Below are positions 5,374 through 63,273 of a stretch of DNA of 64,000 bases, piece by piece. The stretch is taken from the NCBI GenBank assembly GCA_018304165.1, contig JAGVWS010000033.1, positions 60 through 64,059 of the forward strand. The letters run 5' to 3'. The first letter of the stretch is position 1, and every line of letters starts with the position of its first letter. The notes under the pieces were generated by a model that was given only the letters and a program-made list of their open reading frames with translations, did not search any database and was not told the DNA's origin. Origin of the DNA: Candidatus Pacearchaeota archaeon. GTDB lineage: Archaea; Nanobdellota; Nanobdellia; Pacearchaeales; GW2011-AR1. Both the position numbers and the translations under genes were made by a program.

Positions 5374-5670
5374 ATGGGTTGTTCTCTTACTACCATGCGC
5401 AAACTCACCAGTTTATACCTTATTCTGTCGCTTATAGGTATCTTAGCATTGCTTTTTATAAACAATTTTAACGCTCAGGAAATCAAAAGTATAATTATTA
5501 ATTATTCAATATCATCCATTTCAGTTATCAATTCTTCAAACAGCACTGTAATCATCTACTGCGATTCCTGCAACTTTGAGCCTTCTATAATTAATAATAA
5601 TGTCTCGGCGATTATAAGGGAATTTGACGGCTCTCTCTTTTTGGAGAAGCTGGAGGTGTTAGATGATTGA
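5374..5670 (+). CDS. Small secreted/membrane-anchored protein of unknown function
   Basis: N-terminal signal/TM segment (LTSLYLILSLIGILALLFI); Asn/Ser/Ile-rich. Confidence 0.25.
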   Translation: MGCSLTTMRKLTSLYLILSLIGILALLFINNFNAQEIKSIIINYSISSISVINSSNSTVIIYCDSCNFEPSIINNNVSAIIREFDGSLFLEKLEVLDD

Positions 5671-5766
5671 GCTATTACTGGCTTTAGTTATAGGCATTAT
5701 ACTGGAGATATCAGATGATTGGGCTATTACTGGCTTTAGTTATAGGCATTATACTGGAGGTATTGG

Positions 5767-6969
5767 ATGATTGAATTGTTTTTAGCTTTCTTTGTTGGCA
5801 TTATTATCGGAATTATTACGGGACTTATTCCGGGATTGCATATTAATCTTGTTGGAAGCATAATTCTTTCTTATCCCGTTCTTTCTTTTGCTGACGGATT
5901 GAGCATTGCGGTCTTTGTTTCCTCCCTTTCCATAACTCACACCTTTCTTGATTTGATTCCCGGAGTTTTTCTCGGCACTCCTAACGACGATAGTGGCTTA
6001 TCCGTTCTTCCGGGCCATCGCCTATTGCTCGTGGGAAGGGGCTTTGATGCTATTGTTCACGCCATGAGGGGCGGGCTTATAGGACTCATAGCATTAGTAC
6101 TACTGCTTCCGGTCATCATCTTAGTCATGCCAAAAATTTATAATTACCTGTTAAATGTCGTCTGGATAATCCTTATTCTCGCTTCTCTATATCTTATTCT
6201 TTCCCAAAGCTCTAAAGTCCTTGCCCTCTTCATATTCCTGCTCTCAGGTTTCCTTGGAGCAGGCACACTCGGTTTGTCTGTTAATCAATCTCTTCTCCCG
6301 CTTCTTTCAGGATTATTCGGGGCTTCCACTATTATCGGCAGCTTGTTGGACAGGAGCGCTATTCCAAAGCAGATTGCCAGCCATATCAATGCGTGGAAAC
6401 TGGGTTTTAAAGAATCTCTTTCCACTTTTAAAACAATTATTATTTCCTCTCCAATTCCTGCCTTCATGCCCGGAATGGGCTCCAGCCAGGCAGTGATTAT
6501 CGGCTCTTCAATGATTGACGATCATAAAAATCCTAAGGGCTTCCTCTCTTTGATTGGAGGAACTAATGTTCTTGTCATGGGCCTTTCTTTCCTTGCCGTC
6601 TTCCTCATTGGCAAGGCCAGGACTGGTTCAGCAGCGGTTATTCTTGAGGTTTTAAAAAACATCACAGCTTATCAATTAACAATTGTGCTCATCAGTGTAA
6701 TAATTGCAGGCATTATCTCCTTCGCTATAGGGATTTTCATTGCCAAGAGGCTCTCCAAGATTATCGGCAGCATTAATTACTCTTACTTATCAATTGCTAT
6801 ACTGCTAATAATTACTGCATTTGTAATTATTTTTTCAGGATTTGTGGGATTATTAGTTTTCATAACTTCCGCCTGTCTTGGTTTATTATGCATGTCTCTA
6901 GATATCAGAAGAACAACCCTCATGGGCGCTTTAATACTTCCGACGATTTGGCTGTACTGGCCGTTTTAA
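5767..6969 (+). CDS. Polytopic membrane protein, TctA/DUF112-like transporter family
   Basis: Multiple TM helices with LIPGL/LIPGVFLG motifs reminiscent of TctA-family permeases. The start region is tandemly triplicated upstream. Confidence 0.4.
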   Translation: MIELFLAFFVGIIIGIITGLIPGLHINLVGSIILSYPVLSFADGLSIAVFVSSLSITHTFLDLIPGVFLGTPNDDSGLSVLPGHRLLLVGRGFDAIVHAMRGGLIGLIALVLLLPVIILVMPKIYNYLLNVVWIILILASLYLILSQSSKVLALFIFLLSGFLGAGTLGLSVNQSLLPLLSGLFGASTIIGSLLDRSAIPKQIASHINAWKLGFKESLSTFKTIIISSPIPAFMPGMGSSQAVIIGSSMIDDHKNPKGFLSLIGGTNVLVMGLSFLAVFLIGKARTGSAAVILEVLKNITAYQLTIVLISVIIAGIISFAIGIFIAKRLSKIIGSINYSYLSIAILLIITAFVIIFSGFVGLLVFITSACLGLLCMSLDIRRTTLMGALILPTIWLYWPF

Positions 6970-7031: not shown

Positions 7032-10000
7032 TCAGAACCATTTCTTTAACTCAACCTGCTTATCCTTTTCTTTCCCAAATATGCTCTCAATATAACTCTT
7101 GGCCAAAAAAAGGCTCTGCCTGATATAGGGAGAAACATTGTACTTTGTCGCCAATTCAAGAGCCGGCTCAAGGTATTTTACAATGCTTCCATGAGAAACA
7201 GTAAATATGATCCTCCCCCCGCATTTCAGGCACTTTCCAACCAGGGGCGGCCTCCTGTAAATCTCGTTGCATCCAACGCACCTAAATGTCTGCTGTGAAA
7301 ACTTTCTTAAATTTCCCCTTATGTCTCTTATAAAGTGCCTTTCAATTATCAACCTTGCAACGTCTGATTCATCAACAGCCCTTATTTTCTTGTCTAATTC
7401 CATTTGCTTGTTTACTTTATCACGCATCGTCGGAAGGAATTTATAGGAAGAATTCAAAAGGCCCTTGTTGATATCGTCTGTTTCATGAGTATATCCTATA
7501 TTTGAAAATGCATCTTCTCCTTTTTTTAGGACATCCCTGATAGTCTTCACCTGCACTTCCGAAGAGTGTGCGCCCTTCTCTGAAAGTTCATATAACTGCA
7601 GGGGATATTCCATACCTACTTCAAAATCAAGAATCTGCTCATCAACTTCTCCTGCTCTCAGCCTGGAATTAAGGACAAGAGGCGCATCCTGCGTCCCTCC
7701 GCGATGCGCCGGAAGAAATTCTCTTGAGAAATTCAAAAGGACGTCAAGAAGCAGCATGACCGCGGCTTCATCGCCGTCGCATTGGCGTGTAAGAATTCCA
7801 TTAGCTAACACTACATGATTCTCTACATTTAAACAATAAGTTATTTGTTCCTTTTCGGCAGAAATTTCAATTATTGGATCATAAATAAAATTAGTATCTT
7901 GTTTAAGCCCCATATCCTTGCCGCCTTTTTTGTTTATATCATTGATTGCTATATCATTTATTTTAGAAAAGCTTTCCAAGAAATTAACTCTACAATTATT
8001 CCTATTAAAGAGGGGTCTTAGTCTTGGTAAAATTAAAAGATCTCCGATTTTCAGACCAGATGCAAATGCTGTTTTAATTGTATTCTCTTTAACTAAAAAT
8101 TTATGATTTTCTGTGGTAGTAATCTCTTTTCCTGTTGCAGTTTTTATTTTAATTGTTCTACTGGGAGAATGTTTAGTAAAGTTGTTAATACTAACTATTG
8201 ATAGATTATTTTCATTATCAAATCCAACAGTTTTATAATTTTCTACTTTTATCTCTTTAGTCCCATAATTATCAACAATATTTATTGGATTTAATTTTTC
8301 AACTAATTCTCCGATTTTTATATTATTCCATTGTTGACCATTATAAATTGGAAGCTTGGTATTATAATCAAAACAGTCCCTCCTCATAGCCGCATGTATA
8401 AACGGAGACGCAAGCAATCCCTGAGTCTTGCTGAATCCAATTATTCTTCCCAAAACCCCTGCGCAGTTGTGTGGAGACATGCAGGCGACCAGCTGCCCGA
8501 CAAGCTGGTCCTTCCTTTCAATATTATAAAAGGGCTTTGCTCCATACATTTTAACAAGAAGTTCGTCAATAAATCCGGCTATGTTCAGGAATACCTCTTC
8601 GGACTTCTCATCTTTTGACTCCGGACACGATGGAAGGATTATATCATGCGGTTTTATCTCCAGAATTTGCTCATCACTTGTTAATTCCTTGCCGCAAATA
8701 TCCTTTTCATAACCCATCTCCTTAAGCCTCTTGCTGCTCACTCCAATCTCTTTCGGCTTGAAGTGGGTTACTGGAAGCTCGGTAGCATCATACCTCACAG
8801 TTCCATCTTTATTCACACTAAGATTGTGCTTTGCTCTCAATATTCCTTTAGCCAGATTTTCCATAGAGTGGTTCTTATTGCTCGTTCCCCTGACTCCTTT
8901 TATTAAATGGGGGATATCCTTGCCAGACATTCCTAATTTTTTTGCTGCAGCTGCAAGATAGTTCGTGCTGTCAATTCTCCTGTTCAAATAAGAAGTAATA
9001 TTATTATGCCCTTCCTTGCCGCACTTCTTGGAGTAAATAATCTCCCTGCAGTCGCGGCAGTAATGCCTCTGCTCCGTATTTTTATCACAGCCCTCGCATC
9101 TTGCATAAATAGTATCCCTCCTGCAATTATTGCAGTAGTAAATTGGAAAATCCCCTTTTATAGTTCCTTTCTCGCTGGCCTCATTCACGCTTCTGAACCT
9201 TCCCCCCTCCTCTCCGACAGGAAAGAGAACGCTTGGGCTTCCAACCAGCTTCCTGAGCTTTGCCTTCTCTGGCCTCCCCATCCTGGCCCCTATAAAAGTC
9301 CCTGCCCTGTCTTTTATTGGCACAAATGCCAGTTTGTTAATTATATCCAAAACCTGCATGGAAGGATTTACTTTCAGCTTGAGATGTGCTATATCCTCTT
9401 TAAGAGAATATTGGTTATTTTCAAGAATATCCTGTAAAATTCCGAGATTATAAAGCAATGCCTTGCTCTCCTCTTCCTTAAGCACAACATTCTCCGTGGC
9501 AACTTCATGTGGCACGCCAAGCAATTCCAGCGCCCTCTTGCCTTCGGCAAACTGCTGTTTCTGCGGAAGGGAATAAGGAAGTATGATCTTCTTTTCTATA
9601 TAACTGTTTTCAAGCCAATAAAGCAAAGAGCAAAATAAACTGTAATCAATCTGCGTCCAATAATAAATATACTTTGGATGAAGCGGGATATTATACTCTT
9701 CACTCATCTTTGCCGCTTCATCAAAAGACACTTTGGAGGAGTCTATGTTCAGGGCAGGAACAGCTTTCTTTGCTTCAAGAGCCCACCATTCTTCGACATA
9801 CCCCTGCTTTAGAAGAGGCTGATTTCTATTCAATACATCTCCAAAAGAAAAGAGAATGTCTCCAAGATAAATAATCTCTTCAACATCCTTATAGCAGTTC
9901 TTTGCCTCTTCAATATTATTCACTCTCCTTACACTACCATTATACAATTTAACAATGGGCCCCTCAATGCTGTCGCAAACAGTAACAGCACATCCTTTAA

Positions 10001-11096
10001 TTGGCTTTTCTACTTTGAGTTGGGTTCCTATGGATATAAATCCTGCCGCAATCGCCATGGTAGCAGGATGTATTGAAGCTGCCGAAAACCCTCCAAACCG
10101 GCTCCTCCCGTACCTGAACCTAAAAGAACCTGATGCAGAAGGATGCCCGAATATCGGCCTCCCTGCAACCAGATCTTTAATATATGTGGGCGACAATTCT
10201 TTCTTTCCCTCATCTCTCTTCCTGTGAAGAGAAGTATACTCTTCAAGAAATTCCCACTCAGAAATTTTAAATCCACTCTTCTGAAGCTTTCTCAAAATCC
10301 TCAGGCCTTTCTGGGCCTTTTGCGCCAGCCCCTCTCCCAGAATCAGGCAGAAGCCACCCCTTATAAAATTAGTCTCCACTCTCTTAAGATCCTTGTAATT
10401 TGAAACTTCCCTGTCTTCTGTAGGCTCCCCGGAAACCTGGATTGGAAGATGCCTTGCCAAAAACTCCGCTTCTTCTTCAGTAGGCAGGTATTGTAAATTA
10501 GTAATCCTTTCATGATAATCATAAATCTCTGCTATTGTTCTCTTGATTTCTCTTTCTGTCGGCTTGTACTTTGCATATCCAAATGCCTCCCTGAGGTAAT
10601 CAATTAATATCAGCACTACGCAGGATGCTGTTGTTCCGGCGCTTCTTATTGGTCCTGAAAAGTAGGGCACAAAGTACTCTCCGCCGTCCTCATTCTTGTT
10701 AGTCTTTAATGCAGTATACCCCTCTATGGGGCTGCTTACCACTCCAAGCGTGCTATACGCGAAGCCTATTCTTATTCCTGCATCTATTGCTTCTAACTGG
10801 CTGCTAAAAGAACAAAATTTCTGCCTTGCGATTTCCTCAGCTATCTTAAAAGAAATTTCTGGCGCTAATTGCCCATACTCCTTCTCAAGCTCCATTATTC
10901 TGTTTACTATCTCTTGCTTGTCTATCTGGGGATAAATTGTTGAAATTAATCCAACAGCCTTAGCTGCAAGAGTAGCCGCCAGCTTAACTTCCACTTCCCC
11001 CACAGGATCATATCCTTTGGCTCTTGCTTCTCTTGCTATCTCATACAAAAGATTAACTCTGTCTTGTAACTCCGCAAAGTATTCTTCATTGCTCAT
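7032..11096 (-). CDS. polC: DNA polymerase II (PolD) large subunit DP2, containing a mini-intein
   Basis: 1354 aa with DP2 hallmark regions and Zn-finger clusters (CNNCRRD...CEGC; CVGCNEIYRRPPLVGKCLKCGG). Catalytic CDGDE motif immediately after the intein. Confidence 0.9.
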   Translation of the reverse strand: MSNEEYFAELQDRVNLLYEIAREARAKGYDPVGEVEVKLAATLAAKAVGLISTIYPQIDKQEIVNRIMELEKEYGQLAPEISFKIAEEIARQKFCSFSSQLEAIDAGIRIGFAYSTLGVVSSPIEGYTALKTNKNEDGGEYFVPYFSGPIRSAGTTASCVVLILIDYLREAFGYAKYKPTEREIKRTIAEIYDYHERITNLQYLPTEEEAEFLARHLPIQVSGEPTEDREVSNYKDLKRVETNFIRGGFCLILGEGLAQKAQKGLRILRKLQKSGFKISEWEFLEEYTSLHRKRDEGKKELSPTYIKDLVAGRPIFGHPSASGSFRFRYGRSRFGGFSAASIHPATMAIAAGFISIGTQLKVEKPIKGCAVTVCDSIEGPIVKLYNGSVRRVNNIEEAKNCYKDVEEIIYLGDILFSFGDVLNRNQPLLKQGYVEEWWALEAKKAVPALNIDSSKVSFDEAAKMSEEYNIPLHPKYIYYWTQIDYSLFCSLLYWLENSYIEKKIILPYSLPQKQQFAEGKRALELLGVPHEVATENVVLKEEESKALLYNLGILQDILENNQYSLKEDIAHLKLKVNPSMQVLDIINKLAFVPIKDRAGTFIGARMGRPEKAKLRKLVGSPSVLFPVGEEGGRFRSVNEASEKGTIKGDFPIYYCNNCRRDTIYARCEGCDKNTEQRHYCRDCREIIYSKKCGKEGHNNITSYLNRRIDSTNYLAAAAKKLGMSGKDIPHLIKGVRGTSNKNHSMENLAKGILRAKHNLSVNKDGTVRYDATELPVTHFKPKEIGVSSKRLKEMGYEKDICGKELTSDEQILEIKPHDIILPSCPESKDEKSEEVFLNIAGFIDELLVKMYGAKPFYNIERKDQLVGQLVACMSPHNCAGVLGRIIGFSKTQGLLASPFIHAAMRRDCFDYNTKLPIYNGQQWNNIKIGELVEKLNPINIVDNYGTKEIKVENYKTVGFDNENNLSIVSINNFTKHSPSRTIKIKTATGKEITTTENHKFLVKENTIKTAFASGLKIGDLLILPRLRPLFNRNNCRVNFLESFSKINDIAINDINKKGGKDMGLKQDTNFIYDPIIEISAEKEQITYCLNVENHVVLANGILTRQCDGDEAAVMLLLDVLLNFSREFLPAHRGGTQDAPLVLNSRLRAGEVDEQILDFEVGMEYPLQLYELSEKGAHSSEVQVKTIRDVLKKGEDAFSNIGYTHETDDINKGLLNSSYKFLPTMRDKVNKQMELDKKIRAVDESDVARLIIERHFIRDIRGNLRKFSQQTFRCVGCNEIYRRPPLVGKCLKCGGRIIFTVSHGSIVKYLEPALELATKYNVSPYIRQSLFLAKSYIESIFGKEKDKQVELKKWF
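7782..8375 (-). other. Mini-intein (198 aa, no homing endonuclease domain) inserted between ...HAAMRRD and CDGDEAA of DP2
   Basis: Starts with Cys (CFDYNTKL), TxxH block (TENHKFL), block F/G (YCLNVENHVVLANGILTRQ), ends in Gln followed by Cys+1. Coordinates verified codon by codon (C908=8373-8375, Q1105=7782-7784). Confidence 0.75.
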
Positions 11097-11545
11097 GTTA
11101 ATTATCAGTTAATATGGTTTAATGCCACATTTAGTTTATAACCCCATTTTGTTTATTTTTCATGTTAATTATTGGTTGGTAAGACTTTTATTTTTCATGT
11201 TAATTATTGGTTGGTAAGACTTTTATTTTATAACCATTCTTTATTTATTATCTGGGTTAATTATCAGTTAATATTCGTTAACAGCACATTTAATTTATAA
11301 CCTCATTTTATTTATTGCTCATGTTAATTATTGGTTGATAATTCTCCTCAGCAATTTATAATAATTGTTATGGTGGGTTATTGCAGATATTTATGCTATC
11401 TTTTCAGGATATATCCCATGACTTTAGTATTTCCCTATAATGTCTTGTGCTATATTATTTCCTCAATGCAGACAATAGCTTCAAAGTATATTTATTTTCT
11501 TAATGCAAACGATATTCTCAAAGCATGTTTATTAAAACAAAATTA
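11097..11545. repeat. Intergenic block of duplicated modules, including 3 extra copies of the DP2 start context (catgttaatta)
   Basis: Module gttaattatcagttaata / acatttaRtttataacc / tcatgttaattattggttgg is duplicated (11098-11230 and 11257-11345), with an internal 37-bp tandem duplicate at 11158/11195. Confidence 0.6.
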
Positions 11546-13261: not shown

Positions 13262-13400
13262 TTTGTCAAAACTATAGCTGGGAACTTTAATAGCTGAACT
13301 GTTAATCATTGACTACATACTCTGGATACCTCAATAGCTGAACTGTTAATCATTGACTACATACTCTGGATACTTTAATAGCTGAACCGTTAATCATTGA
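13262..13400. repeat. 45-bp tandem repeat x about 2.7 (aatagctgaactgttaatcattgactacatactctggatac) between cdc6 and DP1
   Basis: Direct repeats seen in sequence at 13280, 13325 and 13371. Confidence 0.7.
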
Positions 13401-13509
13401 CTATTAAGTAAAGGACATGCTATTTTGGTTAATTATTTATGTCTTTCACTATATCTCAATAATTTGAATGTACCTTGCCCGTCTGAACTTTTGAATATTA
13501 AATAAAAAA

Positions 13510-14982: not shown

Positions 14983-15414
14983 TTTTACCCTCTTACCTCT
15001 TTTCTTTAAAATAGATTAGATTCAACCATTTCTTCATTTTATAAAACTTTAGATACTCTATAATATGGTAACAACTTATATTTATCCTATTTATCTCACC
15101 CTTTTATCTCACTATCTCCCCTTCTTATCTCACACCTCTATTTCTTATGGAAACCATATAATAACAAAAAATTTCCTTGAAAAAAGGTATTTTTTAGTTT
15201 ATATCTGATAAAATTAAAAAATAACAGTTAACCTTTTCTTCCTGTGGAAATATTAAGCTAATATATATTCTAAGTTATATTATATTATATTATAATTATT
15301 TTAATATATATAATATATAATATAAAACTTTTTAAACAAAAAAAGAAAAAAGAAAACCAACTTTCATTTTATAAAGTTTTCTATGAGAAACAAAGGGGTC
15401 AGGGTCTATATTAC
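14983..15414. promoter_or_regulatory. Candidate replication origin (oriC): ORB-like boxes plus extreme AT tract (DUE) upstream of cdc6
   Basis: ttcCTGTGGAAATat (15237) and TGGAAACC (15145) resemble the archaeal mini-ORB core CCAGTGGAAAC. ttatctcac occurs x3 (15092-15135). A (tatat)-rich tract at 15258-15345 is a DUE candidate. Position next to cdc6 and PolD matches typical archaeal origins. Confidence 0.4.
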
Positions 15415-19909: not shown

Positions 19910-20044
19910 TCCTCTTGCGAAAGTTGTTTTTTGTTTTTGATTAAAACTTTTGACGCAGAAAAAGATGTGTAGGAAAAGATACGTAGAAAGGGCTTGAGCT
20001 TCATATGATGCAATGATAGCTTTTACAACAGCAAAACAACTATA

Positions 20045-20142
20045 TTAATTGAGATACATTAATTGAGATACATTAATTGAGATACATTAATTGAGATACA
20101 TTAATTGAGATACATTAATTGAGATACATTAATTGAGATACA
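20045..20142. repeat. 14-bp tandem repeat x7 (ttaattgagataca)
   Basis: Perfect tandem copies seen directly, immediately upstream of the small membrane protein gene at 20174. Confidence 0.8.
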
Positions 20143-20173
20143 AGTAGAGGAAGTAATTGAGAGGAAATAAATA

Positions 20174-24901: not shown

Positions 24902-25235
24902 GGACGTTATAATAATTATTCGCGTCGATAAGTTACTTTGAAACCAGAAGTGATTAACTGATAACATATAAAACAATAATTAGCGTCGATAAGTTACTTT
25001 GAAACCAAGGAATCAAGGATAATTAACTAATATTAATTGATAAACTGCAAAACATAAAACGCTGCTCTAATCTGAATGTATGATTCAACACTATTGATAA
25101 ATCTCTAATAAGCTAATATCTGAATGTATGATTCAACACTATTGATAAATCTCTAATAAACTAATTTATTATTATAAGAACTATTGCGATAGATATATTA
25201 AAAATTAGTGCGGAATTTACCTAATCACCTATAGT
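24902..25235. repeat. Mosaic repeat region homologous to 55480-55735
   Basis: Both carry ataagttacYttRaaacca...aattaactgataa x2, a 47-bp direct duplicate (25071/25120), and the module TTAGTGCGGAATTTASCTAATCAC. Confidence 0.55.
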
Positions 25236-25420
25236 GAAAGACATAATTCTTTCCCTAAATAGCCAATGACAAATCAGGGAAATATTAAAGTCCTTGGCTA
25301 TAATGTTAATATTAATCAGATATTAAGTATAAGCAAGCAAAGTATAGCATCTATCCTCGTCAATAACATAGCAGCCTTATCGTATCAAAAACTCGTCTTA
25401 GTCATCAAAAATGTTAATCA

Positions 25421-25641
25421 TCAAGGATGTTAATCCTTGACTGCGCTCAAGAATTGTAAATTCTTGACGTTTTGAATGTGCTCAAGAACTAATGTTCTTG
25501 ACATTTTGAGCATACTTATAACGAGAGACCAAAATATTTCACCATGTTTTTTGTTCTCTCGAATACAGCAACAGACAAAATGGTCAAATATCTAAGTCTG
25601 TTGCCGTAAGATGCAAGCTCCAGCATCTTGATTATGCTGGC
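25421..25641. repeat. Hairpin array (GCTCAAGA-Nn-TCTTGAC units x3) followed by an inverted copy of the 1795-1940 structured element
   Basis: Units tcaaggatgttaatccttgac, tcaagaattgtaaattcttgac, tcaagaactaatgttcttgac with compensatory inner-stem changes. 25517-25606 is the reverse complement of segments of 1795-1920. Confidence 0.6.
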
Positions 25642-25928
25642 GTCTTCACTACAATGTCTTCCCTGCTTTTTCTGGTCGTTTCATCAACCCATGTTGGAGG
25701 CCCGCCCCTCATTCTTTGGAAAACAGCTTCATACACAGGGCAATTTCCTTTAAGTATTGTGCATAATACTTTTCCTTCATTTTCTCCGGAACAATCTCCG
25801 ATGCCATCATCGCAATTAAAATTATAAGGGGTAATCATATCACCCCTTTTGGCATCAGCAATACTAGCTACTTTATGGAACCTTTCACACTTAACAGTAT
25901 ATATCACAGCCATATTACATAGAAGCAA
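25632..25928 (-). CDS. Small Cys-rich protein of unknown function
   Basis: Seven Cys in 98 aa (CDDGIGDCSGENEGKVLCTILKGNCP). Confidence 0.3.
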   Translation of the reverse strand: MLLCNMAVIYTVKCERFHKVASIADAKRGDMITPYNFNCDDGIGDCSGENEGKVLCTILKGNCPVYEAVFQRMRGGPPTWVDETTRKSREDIVVKTPA

Positions 25929-27788: not shown

Positions 27789-28054
27789 AGTATCTCCGAT
27801 GGATTGCTATTACATATTAGAAATAAGAGATATAGAATCTATTAATTAATTTTGAAACACCAGCCATCTAGTTCTTAACGATGATAAATACTGGCAAGCC
27901 ATCTAGTTCTTAACGATGATAAATACTGGCAAGCCATCTAGTTCTTAACGATGATAAATACTGGCAAGCCATCATCCAAGTTATCCTAATCTGATTTACA
28001 ATATTAATTGAGCCCTGAATCTATTACTAAGCTATATTTGTATTGGAGATACTT
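27789..28054. mobile_element. MITE-like element carrying an internal 35-bp x3 tandem array, abutting the 3' end of tRNA-Ala
   Basis: Ends AAGTATCTCCGATGG (27789) and GTATTGGAGATACTT (28040) match the family TIR. 35-bp unit ccatctagttcttaacgatgataaatactggcaag x3 at 27864-27968. Confidence 0.55.
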
Positions 28055-29900: not shown

Positions 29901-30905
29901 ATGATTATATCTATACGCATGATATTGAAAAGGTTGGGAGCTTCCCTGGCCGCGCTTTGCGCGGGCTCCATTGGAGTGGGATGCGTTAGTGATGTAAATG
30001 CAATTACAAGAGAGATTGAGAGCTATGAGCGGACTAAGATAATTCTTGAGGAATTAATTGAGCACTTTGAGAGGCAGAGAGATCAGAGAGATAATACATA
30101 CTCAAATAAAGATGATTCATATCACTATGCATCTTCTGAACAGTTATCAGAGCAGCTTTCAGAACATGAGAATTCTGCACCCGTTATAGAGCCGGACAGG
30201 AGCAGCCTTTTTTACAGAATAATTCCCGGCGTGAACGCTCTGCAAAGAAGCAATACAAACAATATGAACAGATTAAACAGCAGTGCAAGCAGTATCAACA
30301 ATGCAACAATGAGTATCAACAATGCAACAATGAGTATCAACAATGCAACAAGCAGTTTGCAAAACAGCATTTTATCTGGGCATAACAATATCAGGGCCCA
30401 AAATGCCGTTGATGCAACTCTTAACAGCCTTGATGATCCAAAAAGAGATTTTGACGAGGGAGATGCTAAGCGAGTAGCCCTGACTCTTCTTACCGGCCAG
30501 GACATAGGGGCTGTCGTTGAGTGGGGTTATTCTCAGGTAGATGAAGTCAGGAGAGTAAAGAAAGAATGGCTGGAAAAGCCTCTCGAAGAATATACTGGAG
30601 TTAAATGGGGCTTCTCATTTAGCGGAGGCATTTCCGGTGAGGTTGATGCAGGGATCAGGGCAAGAAAGAAACTTAATGTCTTTGGACTTTCCGGTGAATT
30701 ATCCCTTGAATTAAAAGAACAGTCCTGGAGCGATTTTGCTTACGGAAATTCTCAAGCTTCCGCTCTTACCTCTTCTTATGCATATAGATACAGAGAACCA
30801 GTTCTTAACTCTCCACTATGGCTCATGGCTCTTAGTGATGAAGATGAATCTCCCACTATTACTCTTGCTTACACCATAAAATTCCCTTCCGGAAAAAGGC
30901 GCTGA
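29901..30905 (+). CDS. Secreted/lipoprotein-like protein of unknown function
   Basis: Signal peptide with lipobox-like GVGC; SEQLSEQLSE and NNATMSINNATMSINNAT repeats. Confidence 0.35.
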   Translation: MIISIRMILKRLGASLAALCAGSIGVGCVSDVNAITREIESYERTKIILEELIEHFERQRDQRDNTYSNKDDSYHYASSEQLSEQLSEHENSAPVIEPDRSSLFYRIIPGVNALQRSNTNNMNRLNSSASSINNATMSINNATMSINNATSSLQNSILSGHNNIRAQNAVDATLNSLDDPKRDFDEGDAKRVALTLLTGQDIGAVVEWGYSQVDEVRRVKKEWLEKPLEEYTGVKWGFSFSGGISGEVDAGIRARKKLNVFGLSGELSLELKEQSWSDFAYGNSQASALTSSYAYRYREPVLNSPLWLMALSDEDESPTITLAYTIKFPSGKRR

Positions 30906-31172
30906 TTTCTGATACAATCCCAATTTAGCAGGAAGATTTAAAGAATCAACCAATAATGTAAATCCTCTTAATAAGCACGAACAGGCATGAGCAAGCCTTT
31001 GTTAGCCTTTGTTAGCAATTACCATCGATTGAACTCGTTGATAAAGGTCATACCTAATTAATAATGGAATTATTTCTGATAGTTATATCATTCTTATGCT
31101 ACTAAAATAATTACCCATTGGAGATGCTGGCTCTTAACCAACACTTATAAAGAAGTATGCACAATCCATTGG

Positions 31173-41170: not shown

Positions 41171-41992
41171 ATGGAAATTTATAAAAGGCACAGGGGAAAT
41201 TTTGCAGTTGCTCTAGGAAAATTAGCCAGAGCTAAAACAAAGCAAGCCTTTGCAACACCTGCGCAGGGTATGCAGGAAAGAATGCGGCAGGGAATTGAAG
41301 CGGATATTTCTACAGAGGGAGCATGGTATAATGCAAGCTTTAATGAAGTTGGCGGAAGAATTCTCGGAACAAGGGCAGAATTTAATCCATTAATTGATTG
41401 CGCTGAACAGGCAGTAGAATCCACGAGAATAGGAGAGTTTTATTTAGAAGGAGTTTTAATTAATGGAAATCCTGCATCAGAAGTTCTTGCTGAAGCTGCG
41501 GAAAGAGATGCACAAAAACCAATTCATAAAAGACGGGTTGCAGATTTTGGGCAGATGAAGACCCATGATGTTCCGGCTGACTGCTTTGGAGATGATGATA
41601 CAATTGTATTTCTTGCAGAAAGCAAGGCAGGAGCGAATAAGTATGGGTCATGGTTGAGAAAAAATGCAGGAGTTAAGGAATCAAGAGTCCGTATGCAGGA
41701 TATAGATGGGAAGGATAAATCAAGAGGATTTTGGCTTGGCAGGCTTGCTGATGACGGCAGGTCTGATTTCTATTGCGACGACAGGTTCCTCGGCAATGGC
41801 GGCGGCTCTCTGTTTGGGGTATATGAAAGTGCCGAAGGCACACAAAAAATTTCTGAACAGCATGAACATGCTGAACAAAGAAGAATCATTTCTCCGAATT
41901 TGTCAGACATGCTTAAATATTCAAGGCCCTTTGTTCATTCAAGAGACTGGAAAGATTTTGAAAGAGGATTAAGGGCAAAATTTGAAAAGTGA
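41171..41992 (+). CDS. GC-rich (about 45-50% GC) protein of unknown function, probably horizontally acquired
   Basis: Composition clearly above the about 33% background. A decaying partial copy of its 3' part lies at 42330-42430. Confidence 0.45.
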   Translation: MEIYKRHRGNFAVALGKLARAKTKQAFATPAQGMQERMRQGIEADISTEGAWYNASFNEVGGRILGTRAEFNPLIDCAEQAVESTRIGEFYLEGVLINGNPASEVLAEAAERDAQKPIHKRRVADFGQMKTHDVPADCFGDDDTIVFLAESKAGANKYGSWLRKNAGVKESRVRMQDIDGKDKSRGFWLGRLADDGRSDFYCDDRFLGNGGGSLFGVYESAEGTQKISEQHEHAEQRRIISPNLSDMLKYSRPFVHSRDWKDFERGLRAKFEK

Positions 41993-42329
41993 TATTTTTT
42001 AAAGTATATCTCTGTCTAATTGAGTTCTGGCGCAGCCAGAACTACACGCCGGTTTACTAGGGCATATTTAACTTCATTTTACGCCATAAAATTCAGAAGC
42101 GACATTGAGTAGCGATGAAGAAACTAAGAGTGCGCAGAGCGAAACTGAGAAAACAAAAGTTTTCGAGGACTCAAGATGTCAAAATTAAAATAATTTTGAG
42201 CACATTCAAAAATTAACATTTTTGATGAGTGACCTTCTTGAAGTATGAAGCTTCAGTGTGCAGATTAAATTCTGCTCTGTACGGGCAAGATTCTCGGCAT
42301 GAAAGAAATTTCATGAGGTAAACTGGCTA

Positions 42330-42430
42330 CACTGTGTCTTGGCTCAACAGGCTTGCTGATGACAACAGGTCTGATTTCAATTGCAACAACAGGAACCTCG
42401 ACAATGACGACGGCTCTCTGTTTGGAATAG
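42330..42430 (+). pseudogene. Decaying partial duplicate of the 3' region of gene 41171-41992
   Basis: About 85% identity to 41727-41825; the differences are predominantly G-to-A (ggc to gac/aac). Confidence 0.6.
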
Positions 42431-43281: not shown

Positions 43282-43479
43282 ATGATCATAGTCATCCGTT
43301 GTATGAGCTGCGGCAAACCCATTGCGCACTTGTACGAAAAGTTTAAACAGCGTACTGCCAATGGAGAATCTGCGCGGGACGTTCTTGATGATCTTGGACT
43401 CAAGAGATATTGCTGCCGCTCCGCTTTCATGGGTCAGGTTGATTTGATTGAGGAGATTTCTAAATTCAAAAAATCTTGA
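43282..43479 (+). CDS. rpoN: DNA-directed RNA polymerase subunit N (Rpb10 homolog)
   Basis: IRCMSCGKPI...LGLKRYCCR... zinc-bundle signature; 65 aa. Confidence 0.85.
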   Translation: MIIVIRCMSCGKPIAHLYEKFKQRTANGESARDVLDDLGLKRYCCRSAFMGQVDLIEEISKFKKS

Positions 43480-43584
43480 AGATTTGATTTTTTGAGCCAC
43501 GAAAATTGAAAATTTTTGATGTTTAAGAAGAGTTAAAAAATCCTTATCTGATAAGCTCCATAATCAACCTAATATGTGTAATCC

Positions 43585-43752
43585 GCTCAGATTATAATAA
43601 GTTGCATGATTTGTATTAGTGATAATTAATTCTGCAAAACGCTCAGATTATAATAAGTTGCATGATTTGTATTAGTGATAATTAATTCTGCAAAACGCTC
43701 AGATTATACTATGTTGTATGATTTGTATTAGTGATAATTAATTCTGCAAAAT
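43585..43752. repeat. 56-bp tandem repeat x3
   Basis: cgctcagattataataagttgcatgatttgtattagtgataattaattctgcaaaa repeated; third copy slightly diverged. Confidence 0.8.
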
Positions 43753-44087: not shown

Positions 44088-44205
44088 ACGAAGACAGCAC
44101 CCAAGCTTCGCCTCTTGTGGGAGACTAACACAGTAGGCGTAACCTGCTTGACTTCCGAGTTCGGGATGAGTTCGGGTATTTCCAGGTTACTATGGCCGTC
44201 TTCTG
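44088..44205 (-). rRNA. rrf: 5S ribosomal RNA (unlinked)
   Basis: Reverse complement reads GAAGACGGCCATAGTAACCTGGAAATACCCGAACTCATCCCGAACTCGGAAGTCAAGC...GGGTGCTGTCTTC, with the CCCGAAC...GGAAGT.AAGC core and a 9-bp terminal helix I. Confidence 0.8.
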
Positions 44206-48336: not shown

Positions 48337-48763
48337 TAAGGGGATTAGTAAAATTTGATAGCCATGATAATTATTAAACAAATATGTTTTACGTTATAAT
48401 TGATTATTAAACTTTGATAGCCATGATAATTATTAAACAAATCTGCAATAATCATAAAATAATGGTGCAGTTCAGAATTTGGTGAGCAGTGTAAATTCAC
48501 ACTAAGTTTTGATATAACTATTATTAATAGCTTTTATGCTCACTATAAACAACTATCTTAATATTAATTAATATGTCGGACACTTGCATGCGGCTTATGT
48601 CTGTGTTTTACAGTTATCAGTTAATTATTCTTGGTTCTAACAGTCTATCCGCATAGGTTTAGTTATAGGCAACTTGTTAAGGGCAAAACAACCTAACCTA
48701 TGCCTATAATGACAGATTCTAAGGTAACTTATTGGTCTGTTATTGCTATAATCCCCCAGAACC

Positions 48764-50218
48764 TTAATCAACAATCCTGTAACTATCAAACCTTTCCTTT
48801 AGCTTATTCCAATTCTCCGGATTCTCCCCGCTGATTATATGCTCATAAGTGCGGAGAGCCATGTCCCATGAATGGTCTGTATTGTTGTAATTAAACCTTC
48901 CCGGCCTCCCGATTGTGTACAATCCTTTTATCGAATCGCAGTAATTTAATACTGCATTTAAAGGCTCTAAAAAGCCCCTTAGATAAACAGGGTATACTCT
49001 TGGGCCTGTTTTAACAATATACTCCTGAATTTCTTTCCTGCTTTTTAATATTCCTGCTTCTTCCAGCTGCTTAAAAATTAAATCTATATTCTCCTTAGTC
49101 GGCTCTTTTGTAGTTTCAACCATCAATCCTGTTTTTCCCGGAGGACATGTCAGTTTAGAGAAAGCTTTCTGCTCGCTTACTCTTTGAAACAGGAATTCCT
49201 TTTCAGGAAAGAACACCCAGCAGTCTTCCATTGCGCGCTCTTTATTTAAAATAATGTAAATTATGCTGACAGGACGGTAAGTTAAATTAAGTGTTGCTTC
49301 TCTAGCCCTTGAATACTCTGAACCATTATCTTTAACTATGCCAAGAAGATAATCAAGGTAGATGGTAGATATAACATAGTCCGGCTTGAGCTTTACTTTC
49401 TTTATTTTTACGTAATTTATTTTTTTATCTGTTACATTAATCTCTGAAATTTCTGTTTCCAGAAGGACCTGCCCGCCATTTTTTTCTATATTCTTAACTA
49501 AGTCTTCAGCAATCTGCTTCATCCCATGGGGAGGATAATGAAAAAACTGGGCTGAAAACTTGGAGCTGTCGCCAAAAACTGCTCCTTTAATGAGTTGGAA
49601 GATGTTGGAAACTGCAACTCTTCTTATAGCAAGCTCCCTGTCAAGGTTGCCTGCTTCAGTGTTCCATACTTTTTCAGCATAGCCTTTAAAAGAAAGATTA
49701 TAAAGAGTTCTTCCAAATCTGTTTGTCAGGTAATTCTCGTAAGAATCATCTGGCCGCCTGCTTATCAATTTTCCCGCAATGTCCAGCATCGCTCTTGCGG
49801 CAATGACAGGCATCTTTGTCATTATTTGTGACATTTTAAGGGGAAATTCAAAGTAATTATTGCGCAGGTAAATTCTGTTTTTCTTTTTTACTTTAAGGAG
49901 AGGCGTAACTTTATCCATTTCTTCAAGAATTCCCTGCAGAATAGTGTATATTTTGTGCGGGCCAAAATCAAAATGAAATCCCTTGTAGTCAAAACCCCTT
50001 GCCAATCCGCCGACATAATCCTGCCTTTCAACAACGAAAACTTCATATTCTGGATTCTGCGAAAAGTAGTATCCAGCAGCAAGTCCCGCAATTCCTGCTC
50101 CAATAATAACAACTTTCTTTTTATTCTTAACAGTAGATTCTTTAGCAACCATTTTATTCTTAACAGTAGATTCTTTAGCAACCATTTTATTCTTAACAGT
50201 AGATTCTTTAGCAACCAT
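48764..50218 (-). CDS. FAD/NAD(P)-binding oxidoreductase (amine oxidase / phytoene desaturase-like) with MVAKESTVKNK x3 N-terminal repeat
   Basis: Rossmann dinucleotide motif VVIIGAGIAGLAAGYY. 33-bp tandem repeats x3 at the 5' end (50120-50218). Confidence 0.55.
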   Translation of the reverse strand: MVAKESTVKNKMVAKESTVKNKMVAKESTVKNKKKVVIIGAGIAGLAAGYYFSQNPEYEVFVVERQDYVGGLARGFDYKGFHFDFGPHKIYTILQGILEEMDKVTPLLKVKKKNRIYLRNNYFEFPLKMSQIMTKMPVIAARAMLDIAGKLISRRPDDSYENYLTNRFGRTLYNLSFKGYAEKVWNTEAGNLDRELAIRRVAVSNIFQLIKGAVFGDSSKFSAQFFHYPPHGMKQIAEDLVKNIEKNGGQVLLETEISEINVTDKKINYVKIKKVKLKPDYVISTIYLDYLLGIVKDNGSEYSRAREATLNLTYRPVSIIYIILNKERAMEDCWVFFPEKEFLFQRVSEQKAFSKLTCPPGKTGLMVETTKEPTKENIDLIFKQLEEAGILKSRKEIQEYIVKTGPRVYPVYLRGFLEPLNAVLNYCDSIKGLYTIGRPGRFNYNNTDHSWDMALRTYEHIISGENPENWNKLKERFDSYRIVD

Positions 50219-50395
50219 TATCAGAACATGAAATTCAGAGTTTATTTAAAGATTTGTTTACTTGATTGCTCAGTTGCCCAATGATTTATTATAACTTGTA
50301 CTGGCAACTATTAGCGGACCATTTCTATTATAAATTTACCAAACATCAATCAATTATTATATGCTTAACTATATTACTAAACATTAATCCAAACA

Positions 50396-55479: not shown

Positions 55480-55735
55480 ATTATTAAACTTGGTGATTGA
55501 TGCAATTTAGCACCAATAAGTTACCTTAAAACCAATAATAATTAACTGATAAGCACCAATAAGTTACCTTAAAACCAATAATAATTAACTGATAAGCTGT
55601 AAAACATTAACATAAGTTGCATGCAATTATCTGACATGTAGCTAATTAATGTTAAGAATGCCGTTTATAATGAGCATAAATGCTATTGATAATAGTTATA
55701 TCAAAACTTAGTGCGGAATTTAGCTAATCACTTAA
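55480..55735. repeat. Mosaic repeat region homologous to 24902-25235 (43-bp x2 tandem, module TTAGTGCGGAATTTAGCTAATCAC)
   Basis: Shared modules seen directly; also contains a relative of the 31-bp unit of 2699-2791. Confidence 0.55.
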
Positions 55736-60558: not shown

Positions 60559-60776
60559 GAGTATCTCCGATGGATAGTTATTATAATAGCATAAGAATGA
60601 TATAGCCATTAGAGGCAATTCTATTATTAATCAGATACTATGTTTATAGTCAGTTTAATCGAGGGTAATTGCTAACAAATGCTAACCAAAGCTTAGTCAT
60701 GCCTATTAAGCGAATTTACATTATTAATTGATTCTTTAAATCTTCTTGCTAAATTGTGGCTGTATCAGAGATACGC
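60559..60776. mobile_element. MITE-like element (218 bp) with GAGTATCTCCGAT-type TIRs, directly upstream of gmd
   Basis: Left CGAGTATCTCCGATGGATAG and right CTGTATCAGAGATACGC. Internal similarity to the 53.4 kb copy (cgRgggtWattgcta). Confidence 0.65.
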
Positions 60777-60819: not shown

Positions 60820-63273
60820 ATGCAAAAGAAAGTTGCATTTATTACAGGAATTGGCGGCCAGGACGGCTCTTATCTGGCAGAATTCCTGCTGGAAAAAGGG
60901 TATCTTGTCAGGGGAATTATCAGGAGGGCCAGCTATCCGAACACATCTCGTTTTGAACACCTGCTGAAGAAGTATGGTTTCGGCAGCGGGGATGAGAATA
61001 ATCCTTTCATTGTTAAATATGCTGATTTGACTGACCCTGCAAGCGTAAATGCTGTTCTTGATGAGTTCAAGCCAGACGAAATTTATAATATTGCTGCCCA
61101 GAGCCACGTGGGGATAAGCTTTGACAATCCTCATACTACTATCAGCATTAATACTCTCGGAGTGCTCAATATTCTTGAGTATCTGAGGAGGAATAAATCC
61201 CGCTGTAAGTTTTATCAGGCTTCATCTTCAGAGATGTTTGGAATTTCCCCGCCTCCCCAGAATGAGGAAACGCCAATGCTCCCCCAAAGCCCTTATGGCA
61301 TTGCTAAGCTTGCTTCTTATCATCTGACAAGACTTTACAGGAATGCTTACGGAATTTTTGCCTGCAACGGAATACTTTTCAATCACGAATGTGTGTCTGA
61401 AAATATTCCTATAATCGTCAGAAACAAAAGCACTCAAGTAATTTCTGTGAAGAGAATCAAAGACCTTAGAAGAGCCAGAGACAAAGGCAGCAATATTCAG
61501 CAGTGGGTTATTGGCGATGTAGAGATTTGGGATGGAGATAATTTTGTTGATTTATTGTTAGTCACTGCTACTAAGAGGAAGAAGGATGACGAATCTTTCT
61601 CCTGCAAGACCATGAATACAAGGCATGGAATTATTGAAGCTACTAATCACCATAACATGCTATTGAGTAACGAGCACAAGATAAAGTCTAAAGAAGTGAT
61701 GATTGGCGACGAGCTTCTTCACAGGGCATTTCCCGAATTCAGTGAGTTGTCCAGCGTGACTAATGAGGAAGCATTATTCCTGGGGATGATGGTTGGTGAT
61801 GGCTATATAAGCAAGGAAGGCGGGGGGCAGTTCACTAATAATAATCCAGAGGTTATGGGATTATTTGAGAAGATTTGGAAGAAAGTTGGCCTTGGAACTA
61901 TCACTAAGAGAGAATTCAAAACTGAATACGGTAGGGCTGCTCAGGCTAAGCTGAACAGCAATCATGGCTATCTTAGGCTTTTAAGAGAAGAGATTTATAC
62001 TTATGACGGTTTCAAGAAAATTCCTGATAGGATACTAAATGCAGGTAAGGAAGCCAAGAGGGCATTCTTATCAGGTTATAACCTTACTGACGGGCTTAAG
62101 TCTAATCCCTGCACTTATGAGTTCAAGAACTTCAAGACGAATTCTGTAATTTTAGCTCAGGGGTTATTATTAATAATGAATGAAGTGACCGGCCAGGACT
62201 ACAATATTACTTTTGAGTATGACGAAAAAAATTATGGTTACTATTCTATTAATCTGTTAAGCCCGATTGATAATTCTGCTAAAGAGATGCAGATTATTGA
62301 ACTCTTATCTTCCGGTATGAGCCAGAGAGAAATTTGCAGGCAGAGCGGCATTTCCCGGACATTTATTAGAAAGATTCAGAATGGCGGTCATGCTGAAACT
62401 GTTCATCATTTGGCCCTGGAGAAAAATGTTGTTAAAAAGATGTTTTATCATACTCAACAACCTGTGTGGGTTTATGACATTGAGACTAGTTCAGGAAAAT
62501 TCATGGCCGGAACCGGCAATATAGTCATTGCTAATTCTCCCCGCCGCGGCCACAACTTCGTCACTAAAAAAGTTACCAATCAACTGGCAAAGATTCTTGT
62601 TGGCGAGGATGATGAGCTTGTGCTTGGCAATCTTGATTCTAAGAGAGACTGGGGCTTTTCCAAGGAATATGTTCAGGTCATGTGGGCTATACTCCAGCAT
62701 TACGAGCCGGACGATTTTGTAATAGCTACTCAGGAGACTCACACTGTTGAAGAATTTGTTAAGGAGTGTTTTAGCCTTGTAGGGCTTGACTACAAAGATT
62801 TTTTGAAAACTAATCAGCGTTTCAGAAGGCCGGCAGAAGTTCCGGCATTGCTTGGCGACGCTACTAAGGCCAGAAAAGTTCTTGGCTGGACTCCAAAAGT
62901 TAAGTTCAAGGAGATTGTCAGAATGATGGTTATTGAAGACATTAAGAAAAAGCTCATCGAGAAGAACATAGTTCCAATAGAGTCGGGAGTGGAAAGAGAT
63001 GATGAGTTTTATCTTGAAAAGGCAAGGGAGCTCGCTAAGAGGATTGCTCATAACAAGTTTGGCGAGCTTGCCAAAAAGTTTATTGAAGTAGAGCAGAAGA
63101 TAAAGTCCGCAGTTCCGGAATTCTTGCAGAAAGAGTATCTCTTAAATAATGAGAACGGGGGTCATATAGAGAAGGCAAGGGAATTATCCAAGGTCTTTGT
63201 TGATAATACCTCCCTTTTTGATAGTTACTCTGCGGATAGGCTTAAGAAGTTGCCTAATCTTAGTGATAATTAA
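60820..63273 (+). CDS. gmd: GDP-mannose 4,6-dehydratase containing a 382-aa LAGLIDADG intein and an about 100-aa C-terminal extension
   Basis: GMD N-terminus (KVAFITGIGGQDGSYLAEFLLEKGY), catalytic region ...GILFNHE[intein]SPRRGHNFVTKK. Confidence 0.85.
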   Translation: MQKKVAFITGIGGQDGSYLAEFLLEKGYLVRGIIRRASYPNTSRFEHLLKKYGFGSGDENNPFIVKYADLTDPASVNAVLDEFKPDEIYNIAAQSHVGISFDNPHTTISINTLGVLNILEYLRRNKSRCKFYQASSSEMFGISPPPQNEETPMLPQSPYGIAKLASYHLTRLYRNAYGIFACNGILFNHECVSENIPIIVRNKSTQVISVKRIKDLRRARDKGSNIQQWVIGDVEIWDGDNFVDLLLVTATKRKKDDESFSCKTMNTRHGIIEATNHHNMLLSNEHKIKSKEVMIGDELLHRAFPEFSELSSVTNEEALFLGMMVGDGYISKEGGGQFTNNNPEVMGLFEKIWKKVGLGTITKREFKTEYGRAAQAKLNSNHGYLRLLREEIYTYDGFKKIPDRILNAGKEAKRAFLSGYNLTDGLKSNPCTYEFKNFKTNSVILAQGLLLIMNEVTGQDYNITFEYDEKNYGYYSINLLSPIDNSAKEMQIIELLSSGMSQREICRQSGISRTFIRKIQNGGHAETVHHLALEKNVVKKMFYHTQQPVWVYDIETSSGKFMAGTGNIVIANSPRRGHNFVTKKVTNQLAKILVGEDDELVLGNLDSKRDWGFSKEYVQVMWAILQHYEPDDFVIATQETHTVEEFVKECFSLVGLDYKDFLKTNQRFRRPAEVPALLGDATKARKVLGWTPKVKFKEIVRMMVIEDIKKKLIEKNIVPIESGVERDDEFYLEKARELAKRIAHNKFGELAKKFIEVEQKIKSAVPEFLQKEYLLNNENGGHIEKARELSKVFVDNTSLFDSYSADRLKKLPNLSDN
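61390..62535 (+). other. Intein with LAGLIDADG homing endonuclease domain (residues 191-572 of the GMD ORF)
   Basis: Inserted between LFNHE and SPRRG (contiguous in intein-free GMDs). Cys1, TxxH block (TNHH), LAGLIDADG-like LGMMVGDGY and LSGYNLTDG, block F/G VWVYDIETSSGKFMAGTGNIVIAN with Ser+1. Penultimate residue is Ala, not His. Confidence 0.75.

Follow-up and report, generated by a model that had tools for sequence, protein, structure and literature searches.

What are the hairpins that stand side by side at positions 25421–25502 of a 64,000-nucleotide stretch of contig JAGVWS010000033.1 from a Candidatus Pacearchaeota archaeon (the window, by which we mean the whole of that stretch)? A sequence-only reading made earlier had described three palindromes with the outer half-sites TCAAG and CTTGA, whose inner stems differ yet stay complementary. 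All three are present: unit 1 at 25421–25440 (TCAAGGAT-gtta-ATCCTTGA), unit 2 at 25447–25467 (TCAAGAATT-gta-AATTCTTGA) and unit 3 at 25482–25501 (TCAAGAAC-taat-GTTCTTGA). The complementarity of the inner-stem pairs quoted there stands, although unit 1 had been slightly misread (the pair is ggat/atcc rather than gatg/catc), and the quoted spacers of 3 and 11 nt are valid when the units are delimited as GCTCAAGA..TCTTGAC. We conclude that the hairpins are probably modules of a two-layer, non-autonomous family of mobile DNA, the outer layer being a miniature inverted-repeat transposable element (MITE) and the inner layer a core that nests. This conclusion is built on what was observed of the family: its anatomy, its dispersal and nesting, its covariation, and its confinement to intergenic DNA and to one lineage. 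It agrees with the earlier view that the units belong to a scattered set of intergenic repeats that form hairpins and behave as mobile DNA does.

The bare pattern TCAAG-N5–20-CTTGA occurs six times in the window (G+C ∼38%), where 2.55 ± 1.5 matches are expected and three of 100 shuffles reach six; taken alone, this excess is weakly significant. Two clusters, at 1826–1878 and 25421–25501, account for five of the six matches, and both fold far better than their shuffles on either strand (z-scores of −5.6 to −6.3). Neither array matched a family in an Rfam search. The full array around the three units is larger than the span first described, running from 25385 to 25631, and within 25517–25608 it also holds hairpins of two other types, M2 (25517–25565) and M1 (25566–25608). 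The same four module types are found at 1781–1929, in another order and orientation. A covariance model, R1, was built on ten copies of the inner core and scored 68.9 bits at 1824–1880, 66.9 bits at 25419–25469 and 65.2 bits at 42177–42227, these three high-scoring window copies being part of its training set. By its matches, the sites 1833–1885 and 42176–42260, which the sequence-only reading had cited as carrying units of the same or a related form, are true relatives.

The outer layer has the structure 5′-TATAGCAACAGAC-loop-GTCTGTTGCTG (cargo) TATTCGAGAGAAC-loop-GGTCTCTCGTTATA-3′. Its ends are two related hairpins in inverted orientation, M1 of 43 nt and M2 of 49 nt (TATAGCAACAGAC... and ...CTCTCGTTATA), each with a 9-bp stem and a conserved loop of 19–23 nt. 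M1 and M2 are ∼75–79% alike and are therefore genuine terminal inverted repeats; at all real loci, each copy has one M1-type end (M1 or M1′) and one M2 end, inverted with respect to each other. The element starts TATAG.. and ends ..TTATA, and every copy is bounded by TA..TA. Loci were gathered by scanning public metagenome contigs with the conserved M1/M2 loop, taking exact matches to one pattern. The scan returned 29 loci, ∼19 of them real and all from Rifle samples, and there are 15 distinct MITE sites with unrelated flanks, the two copies of the window included. An empty element measures 92 nt; a single cargo unit brings it to 148–150 nt and two nested units to 205 nt, and a hybrid form has 164 nt. 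A pyrimidine precedes the first TATA at 14 of the 15 sites and a purine follows the last TATA at 13. The 92-nt copy of the window reads GAGCATACT-TA(...)TA-AGATGC, where the paralogous, 97% identical array of contig L083 has the uninterrupted sequence GAGCATGCTCAAGAATC; the two lengths agree only with a 2-bp TA duplicated, and duplication of a TA target is likely but not proven.

The elements are short, non-coding, present in multiple copies and set in unrelated flanks, as MITEs are. The standard form, of 149 nt, lies on the forward strand at 1781–1929, with M1 at 1781–1823, a core at 1824–1880 (type I hairpin 1826–1846, type II hairpin 1853–1878) and M2 at 1881–1929. The minimal form, of 92 nt, lies on the reverse strand at 25517–25608 and consists of the M2 and M1 hairpins named above, which match the terminal-repeat consensus at 100% and 97%, respectively, by BLAST. 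Its TA copies are at 25517–25518 and 25607–25608, and it is inserted at a TA of the type II hairpin of the outermost (level-0) core of the array. A 36-residue open reading frame (ORF) called at 25516–25626 on the reverse strand, inside this element (L003:12143–12253), is a spurious call and the only one within any MITE; it is a likely false gene of public annotations. We also considered the inverted repeat formed by 1776–1940 and 25506–25613 as the boundary of a 23.6-kb island, and rejected this because the same modules occur at >13 other sites.

The inner layer is a core of 50–57 nt that runs in the order CA, type I hairpin, GTGYGC, type II hairpin, C(R). The type I hairpin is TCA-rrr-aTGyTAAT-yyy-TGA and the type II hairpin TCAAG...CTTGA, and the two share TCAAG/CTTGA bases. 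Cores take one of two positions. The first is exactly the M1|M2 junction, where the core sits seamlessly with nothing duplicated or lost: without a core the sequence is ...GTTGCTG|TATTCGAG... and with one it is ...GTTGCTG|CATCA...TTGACA|TATTCGAG..., and the boundaries are the same in the M1′ lineage. The second is the 3′ edge of the type I loop of another core, always just 5′ of TTTTGA, (A)TCTTGA or TATTCGA, and nests of this kind reach three levels. For five of the seven nested cases, a paralogous empty form exists in which the junctions match exactly, again without duplication or loss. Thus CATCAAAAATGTTAAT|TTTTGAATGTGC is intact at 42177–42227 (reverse complement) and split in the window's array (site B) and in L083, and GTCAAAAACTTGTCTTAGT|TTTTGAGCATGC is intact at L065:3962 and split in L083. 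The three-level nest is present at two different loci that are 97% identical and the 205-nt composite MITE is present at two sites; therefore, nests have been recopied as wholes. The R1 model also finds further cores, solitary or nested, without M1 or M2 ends in other contigs.

The three units fall into place within such a nest. Units 1 and 2 are the type I and type II hairpins of the innermost, level-2 core (25419–25469, forward strand), joined by the linker CTGCGC, and this core is also present in the paralogous array at L083:12603–12653. It splits the level-1 core (25403–25503, forward strand), whose 5′ half, CATCAAAAATGTTAAT, occupies 25403–25418 and whose 3′ part occupies 25470–25503 (18.8 bits with R1). 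This 3′ part reads TTTTGA-ATGTGC, followed by a type II hairpin at 25482–25501, which is unit 3, and by CA. When level 2 is taken out, the type I hairpin and linker of level 1 equal those of the un-nested core at 42177–42227 (reverse complement). The level-0 core (25385–25631, forward strand) contains none of units 1–3. It survives in three pieces, TCAAAAACTCGTCTTAGT at 25385–25402, TTTTGAGCATACT at 25504–25516 and AGATGCAAGCTCCAGCATCTTGA at 25609–25631, being interrupted by levels 1–2 and by the 92-nt MITE, and it is 97% identical to L083:12573–12705 over the shared 132 nt; an un-nested form is at L065:3962–4025. The MITE inserted later, at a TA made in the type II hairpin (TCAAG to TTAAG). 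The level-0 hairpin stops 1 nt short of the stop codon of the ORF at 25632–25928.

A solitary core is found at 42177–42227 on the reverse strand, in a TCAAGA..TCTTGA host hairpin of the related site that spans 42176–42260. A hairpin of an RT-16 RNA (42025–42335, forward strand) is expanded around this core, with 124 nt in the Rfam RT-16 alignment where the model has 6. The RNA sits between a variable repeat and a template repeat, which differ at 14 positions, 13 of them at template adenines. The variable repeat is at 41731–41817, at the 3′ end of the ORF 41171–41992, and the template repeat is at 42339–42425, 608 nt downstream. There is no reverse transcriptase gene in the 64-kb window, and, judged by these repeats, 41731–42425 looks like a diversity-generating retroelement (DGR) without its enzyme.

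Covariation was examined in an alignment of ten distinct cores from the window and further contigs, the latter belonging to the same Rifle population or to close relatives of it. Pairing was found in 98.7% of the cells, with two-sided change in eight of the 16 stem pairs. The observed covariation score was reached by none of 500 shuffles, and sliding the partner by one column lowered pairing to 43–55%. Compensatory stem variation is thus borne out on ten copies, more strongly than the sequence-only reading could show. Among the terminal hairpins (M1, M1′, M1″, M2 and two solo copies), stem positions 2–5 each have two to four standard pair types; the outer stem pairs covary, while the AGAC/GTCT bases next to the loop hardly change and loop sequence is well conserved. 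Further folding z-scores were −5.8 to −8.1, M1 and M2 each fold independently, and the predicted single-strand fold of the L083 array, the homologue of the window nest, is an onion of stems. The paired two-sided changes occur in cores and terminal hairpins alike and, therefore, the integrity of the hairpin or palindrome is maintained. The sequence-only reading had gone further, taking covariation to mean selection on hairpin formation and not on duplex recognition. Pairing is indeed kept, but the exclusion of duplex recognition is not airtight: in the terminal hairpins the loops and the stem bases beside them are conserved, and the conserved loops suggest a factor that recognizes their sequence. 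Covariation is no proof of single-strand selection, as arm-to-arm correction of a palindrome or co-evolving symmetric protein contacts would look alike. The single-nucleotide differences between strains within the array are few, unpaired and uninformative.

All 15 MITE sites are non-coding, in sequence that is ∼78% coding, and all solitary cores are non-coding except for a weak copy at 43464–43521 that overlaps the start of an ORF. Three of the 15 sites lie between convergent genes, eight between tandem genes and two between divergent genes, with two undetermined, and both orientations occur; there is therefore no bias towards 3′ ends. The suggestion that the palindromes might be biased towards intergenic and convergent-gene positions was accordingly upheld for the first and contradicted for the second, with three of 15 sites convergent.

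The gene content of the window is archaeal (PolD subunits DP1 and DP2, Cdc6/Orc1, diphthamide synthase and an ERCC4 nuclease), proteins identical to those encoded here carry the name Candidatus Pacearchaeota archaeon at NCBI, the family-bearing contigs come from Rifle aquifer metagenomes and the host is a DPANN archaeon. The MITE at 1781–1929 lies between the convergent ERCC4 and LigT genes, which are 240 nt apart. In three related species (LigT 67–75% identical), the same gap is 1 nt, 3 nt or an overlap, and no family member was found in 24 kb from two of these relatives. Because the genes of the relatives abut and this 24 kb holds no member, the family is, on sequence comparison, lineage-specific and accompanies a general loosening of the genome. 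An M1 20-mer searched against a genome collection of species representatives (the source genome not among them) gave two chance matches in bacterial coding regions, and four scans of viral contigs gave nothing real. We also noted that the window, with a coding fraction of ∼0.78, is less densely coding than two related Pacearchaeota contigs (0.93 and 0.82; L101 and L103), and that genes abutting in relatives are separated by repeat-filled spacers in the window.

How might the two layers move? Here the enzymes and the strandedness of the intermediates are what we infer. The MITE would be cut and pasted in trans by a TA-specific DDE transposase of the IS630/Tc1-mariner type, encoded elsewhere, and would prefer Y-TA-R targets and duplicate the TA; a DDE enzyme is proposed because of the analogy with IS630-linked MITEs (PMC2229807). 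The core would move at the level of the single strand or hairpin, by HuH-like seamless peel-and-paste or by template switching between hairpins. Folding would then be needed for propagation, giving subfamilies that differ by paired compensatory stem changes. HuH-like peel-and-paste is possible for the inner core, and for that layer the mechanism first proposed, mobilization by a Y1 HuH transposase, may hold; template switching is the main alternative.

A transposase with matching ends was sought for either layer and none was found in the ∼320 kb examined (the window and ∼260 kb of family-bearing loci). The 259 kb of family-bearing contigs yielded no homologue of TnpA or TnpB, and there is no DDE transposase anywhere in the window. 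The window does contain a single-copy IS200/IS605 element, with tnpA and tnpB, whose own end hairpins (CCTAA..TTAGG and CCTAAC..GTTAGG) differ from the family, as had been pointed out. The search for a RAYT-like Y1 transposase, which the sequence-only reading had called for, came out negative in the window: with the IS200 model the sole Y1 protein scored 122 bits, compared with 30 bits for the RAYT model NF047646 (cut-off 80), and it is an ordinary IS200-type TnpA paired with tnpB. A nearby tyrosine recombinase gave only generic matches to the Phage_integrase family of Pfam. Further candidates and readings were discarded. The ORF at 29901–30905, considered as a transposase, had no informative match in Pfam, NCBIfam, PHROGs or the PDB; integron attC sites (RYYYAAC/GTTRRRY core sites, cassettes, IntI) do not fit the sequences, and there are no cassettes; and a CRISPR array, in which identical repeats would alternate with unique spacers, is excluded by the lack of a regular spacer architecture.

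Several observations weigh against the two-layer mobile family. As no matching transposase was found, mobilization is inferred from anatomy alone. Only one exact loop pattern was scanned, and the copy number and the range of contexts are therefore lower bounds. Evidence for the TA duplication consists of a single nested copy set against its paralogue and of the Y-TATA...TATA-R flanks, rather than of an orthologous empty site read at nucleotide resolution. For the core, the 5′ flanks are GCTG, GATA, AAAA, TAAT, TAGT and CACT (AAAA, AGAT and AATA on the other strand), so varied that no conserved motif stands beside the target on either strand, and its insertion is indistinguishable from site-specific excision. 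No presence/absence polymorphism was seen at 1781–1929 (site A), at array site B or at the RT-16 copy; the sampled strains all carry the insertions and, therefore, recent activity is not shown. Nor is it proven that all of the loci originate from a single genome.

Whether the core is itself mobile is the question on which the alternatives come closest. It could be a distinct, ultra-small archaeal mobile element that reads DNA or RNA structure rather than sequence, is moved by an enzyme and inserts, recursively and without a seam, where a hairpin loop meets the 3′ arm; this is a tentative proposal that we consider unlikely. If true, such a structure-reading core would enter MITE ends and a DGR-associated RNA hairpin alike. 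Alternatively, only the outer element transposes and the cores are by-products of replication or repair, formed by template switching or abortive gap repair between hairpin-rich MITEs. The mosaic character of the cores, in which the type I hairpin varies from copy to copy independently of the type II hairpin, would be expected of such a process, and a comparison of L065 with L066 reveals a 41-nt deletion between GAGTGTGCTCAA direct repeats. Moreover, neither an enzyme nor a conserved target motif was found for the cores, and every junction lies in a TTGA/TCGA context that resembles microhomology. However, the exact boundaries CATCA...TTGACR recur in seven independent contexts, which include two terminal-hairpin lineages and, as a host outside the MITEs, the RT-16 hairpin, the junctions are without the flanking direct repeats expected of slippage, and solitary cores occur far from any M1 or M2 end. 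An origin of the cores as by-products is thus unlikely, though it deserves serious consideration.

The known system closest in appearance is that of the bacterial REP palindromes and their BIME and REPIN clusters, extragenic palindromes that are read as single-stranded hairpins and spread by RAYT, a domesticated Y1 HuH transposase. Like these, the family has short extragenic palindromes in mosaic clusters with compensatory changes, and single-strand recognition is proposed for it; the palindromes of 20–26 nt are strictly extragenic, and compensatory changes have been reported for REPINs too (PMC3116915). Insertion of the core is seamless and without duplication, as HuH chemistry predicts (PMC10055086). 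The type II hairpins of the beta and gamma subfamilies begin CGTCAAG on the opposite strand, CGTC being a published REP tag (PMC3733652). However, the resemblance does not extend to the other defining features: there is no GTAG tag, CGTC is confined to beta and gamma and is replaced by TGTC in other subfamilies (alpha), and no RAYT was found, the only Y1 protein being of IS200 type with other ends and the 259 kb of family-bearing contigs having neither a TnpA nor a TnpB homologue. Most copies travel within an element that has 43- and 49-nt terminal inverted repeats and TA ends, which is MITE anatomy rather than REP anatomy. The family also differs from REP/BIME sequences in nesting recursively at a loop edge, where those form head-to-head or tail-to-tail arrays (PMC3733652), and in its association with terminal inverted repeats that probably duplicate a TA. 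Membership of the REP/BIME group, as first suggested, is therefore not sustained, and we consider this explanation improbable.

Host functions selected in place, i.e. terminators, RNA-stability elements or a small RNA gene, would account for the strong folding on both strands and for the convergent-gene setting of both large window copies, one of which follows a stop codon by 1 nt. The terminal hairpins also contain runs of T4–T6, and T runs are archaeal termination signals. Against this, the genomic contexts (three convergent, eight tandem and two divergent) are roughly the random intergenic expectation and both orientations are used; the arrays are absent at the orthologous sites of three relatives, where the genes abut; the number of modules varies from none to four, with nesting; and Rfam gave no match. 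We regard arrays maintained as host signals as very improbable, though exaptation of individual copies is possible. That the units are duplex operators for a dimeric protein, an idea to which the conserved outer half-sites and variable centres lend themselves, is scarcely credible, as a half-site spacing of 9 to 16 nt is hard to fit to one dimer geometry, the variable centre is always self-complementary, which is not required of a spacer, and the units are dispersed within transposon-like elements.

The two-layer mobile family is best compared with the small bacterial MITEs. Correia and RUP elements are <200 bp long and A+T-rich, with terminal inverted repeats, TA termini and a TA duplication, and Correia elements exist in two sizes, 107 bp and 155 bp, set apart by an internal block of 50 bp (PMC2229807). 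In the same way, the 56–57-nt core accounts for the difference between the 92-nt and 148–150-nt forms of the present family. Like the family, Correia/NEMIS elements of Neisseria and the RUP elements of S. pneumoniae, which are attributed to IS630-Spn1, are non-coding and mostly intergenic, and their strands or transcripts fold into stem-loops. In contrast to these, the terminal repeats of the family are hairpins with a 9-bp covarying stem and a conserved loop, its two ends are of distinct types (M1 and M2), and its internal block, a discrete double hairpin, is also found on its own and in recursive nests; furthermore, the host is a DPANN archaeon and no matching insertion sequence was found.

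The core can be compared with the PATEs, which are non-autonomous IS200/IS605 derivatives. As in PATEs, there is a similar hairpin at each end and insertion is seamless with no target duplication (PMC10055086, PMC3119063), and an IS200/IS605 element is present in the same genome. Unlike PATEs, however, the core has no room for guide segments and no conserved transposon-adjacent motif, and the end hairpins of the resident TnpA are unrelated; with neither the motif nor the room, the core does not belong to the PATEs. A further lead, and only a lead, comes from the SDRs of Nostoc and other cyanobacteria, reportedly described by Elhai et al. in 2008 as bacterial mobile repeats of 21–27 nt, with no known transposase, that are nested in repeats or hairpins. 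MITEs are known in Archaea, where the DPANN genomes are among the densest, one Woesearchaea genome having 105 per Mb (PMC11602168). For comparison with archaeal MITEs such as the SM elements of Sulfolobus and those of the cMITE census, the density of the present family is ∼5–7 elements per 64 kb. We know of no previous description of the family, its hairpin termini or its nested double-hairpin cargo, and our literature search gave no relevant paper.

DPANN archaea have small, compact genomes. If the family is mobile, part of the difference between ∼78% and ∼93% coding sequence would be a lineage-specific bloom of hairpins that opened gene junctions which abut in relatives. The family would offer a clean natural example of tiny palindromic modules that nest and shuffle, in which filled forms can be set beside empty ones, and it predicts that these organisms have a TA-specific transposase and perhaps an activity that targets hairpins. 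It also bears on the annotation of metagenome-assembled genomes, in which such modules may appear as spurious small ORFs, chimeric scaffolds or expansions in RNA genes such as RT-16. A chimeric scaffold of this kind may be L100 (ANAN16-1_SAMN03842430 scaffold_87044, 1.1 kb), which joins the LigT side of the 1781–1929 element via the repeat to the flank at L066:487. Because two different MITE loci meet in it, we rejected it as an empty site; it arose either as an assembly chimera or by recombination between copies.

Some lesser relatives of the modules lie elsewhere in the window. A terminal-hairpin variant joined to a truncated inverted partner occupies 25226–25298 on the reverse strand (TATAGCCAAGGAC..GTCATTGGCTAT; homologue at L072:2270–2345). 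At 11410–11456 on the forward strand, a solo, decayed hairpin of terminal type has TATA on both sides and is 92.6% identical to the M1′ consensus over 27 nt by BLAST. A more distant solo relative of the terminal hairpins is found on the reverse strand at 13404–13455 (TATAGTGAAAGAC..GTCCTTTAC), as an inverted repeat adjoining the 44-nt repeats by cdc6. On the reverse strand at 43464–43521, at or over the 5′ end of an ABC ATPase ORF, the sequence is probably, though not certainly, a degenerate core (type II hairpin TCAAAAAATC..GATTTTTTGA; 15.7 bits with R1, E-value 0.04). The boundaries of cores in general are only 1–2 nt from the feet of their hairpins.

Other repeats share the intergenic spaces. 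A second family, of ∼250 nt, has copies at 24920–25226, 55480–55735, 48482–48760 (inverted) and L088:946–1156, with internal tandem units of 43 nt and a conserved end ...aaaacttagtgcggaatttagctaatcac, which MITE-type elements adjoin in two copies. Tandem repeats with periods of 14, 35, 56, 31, 33 and 52 nt are found at 20027–20156, 27862–27973, 43577–43751, 2696–2795, 50119–50219 and 5650–5805, respectively. Between strains, the 56-nt array apparently varies by a single unit, the intergenic gap around it being 56 nt shorter in L106 than in L105, and the 52-nt array repeats a ribosome-binding site and start codon ahead of the TctA gene. A 44-nt unit is repeated three times in tandem at 13278–13409 and, together with a very AT-rich segment at 15250–15330, flanks cdc6 by the PolD genes; this region is a plausible replication origin. 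A 5S rRNA gene (44089–44203) is isolated, surrounded by tRNA genes and with neither a 16S nor a 23S rRNA gene nearby. Inteins were found in the PolD large subunit (7032–11096) and in the GDP-mannose dehydratase (60820–63273), the latter with a LAGLIDADG domain; the PolD of a related species has 1157 residues, compared with 1354 here, and no intein domain listed. Finally, another intergenic module of ∼220 nt is present as inverted copies (78–86% identical) at 30905–31130 and 60560–60772, each lying upstream of a gene, that of the tyrosine recombinase in one case and that of the GDP-mannose dehydratase in the other.

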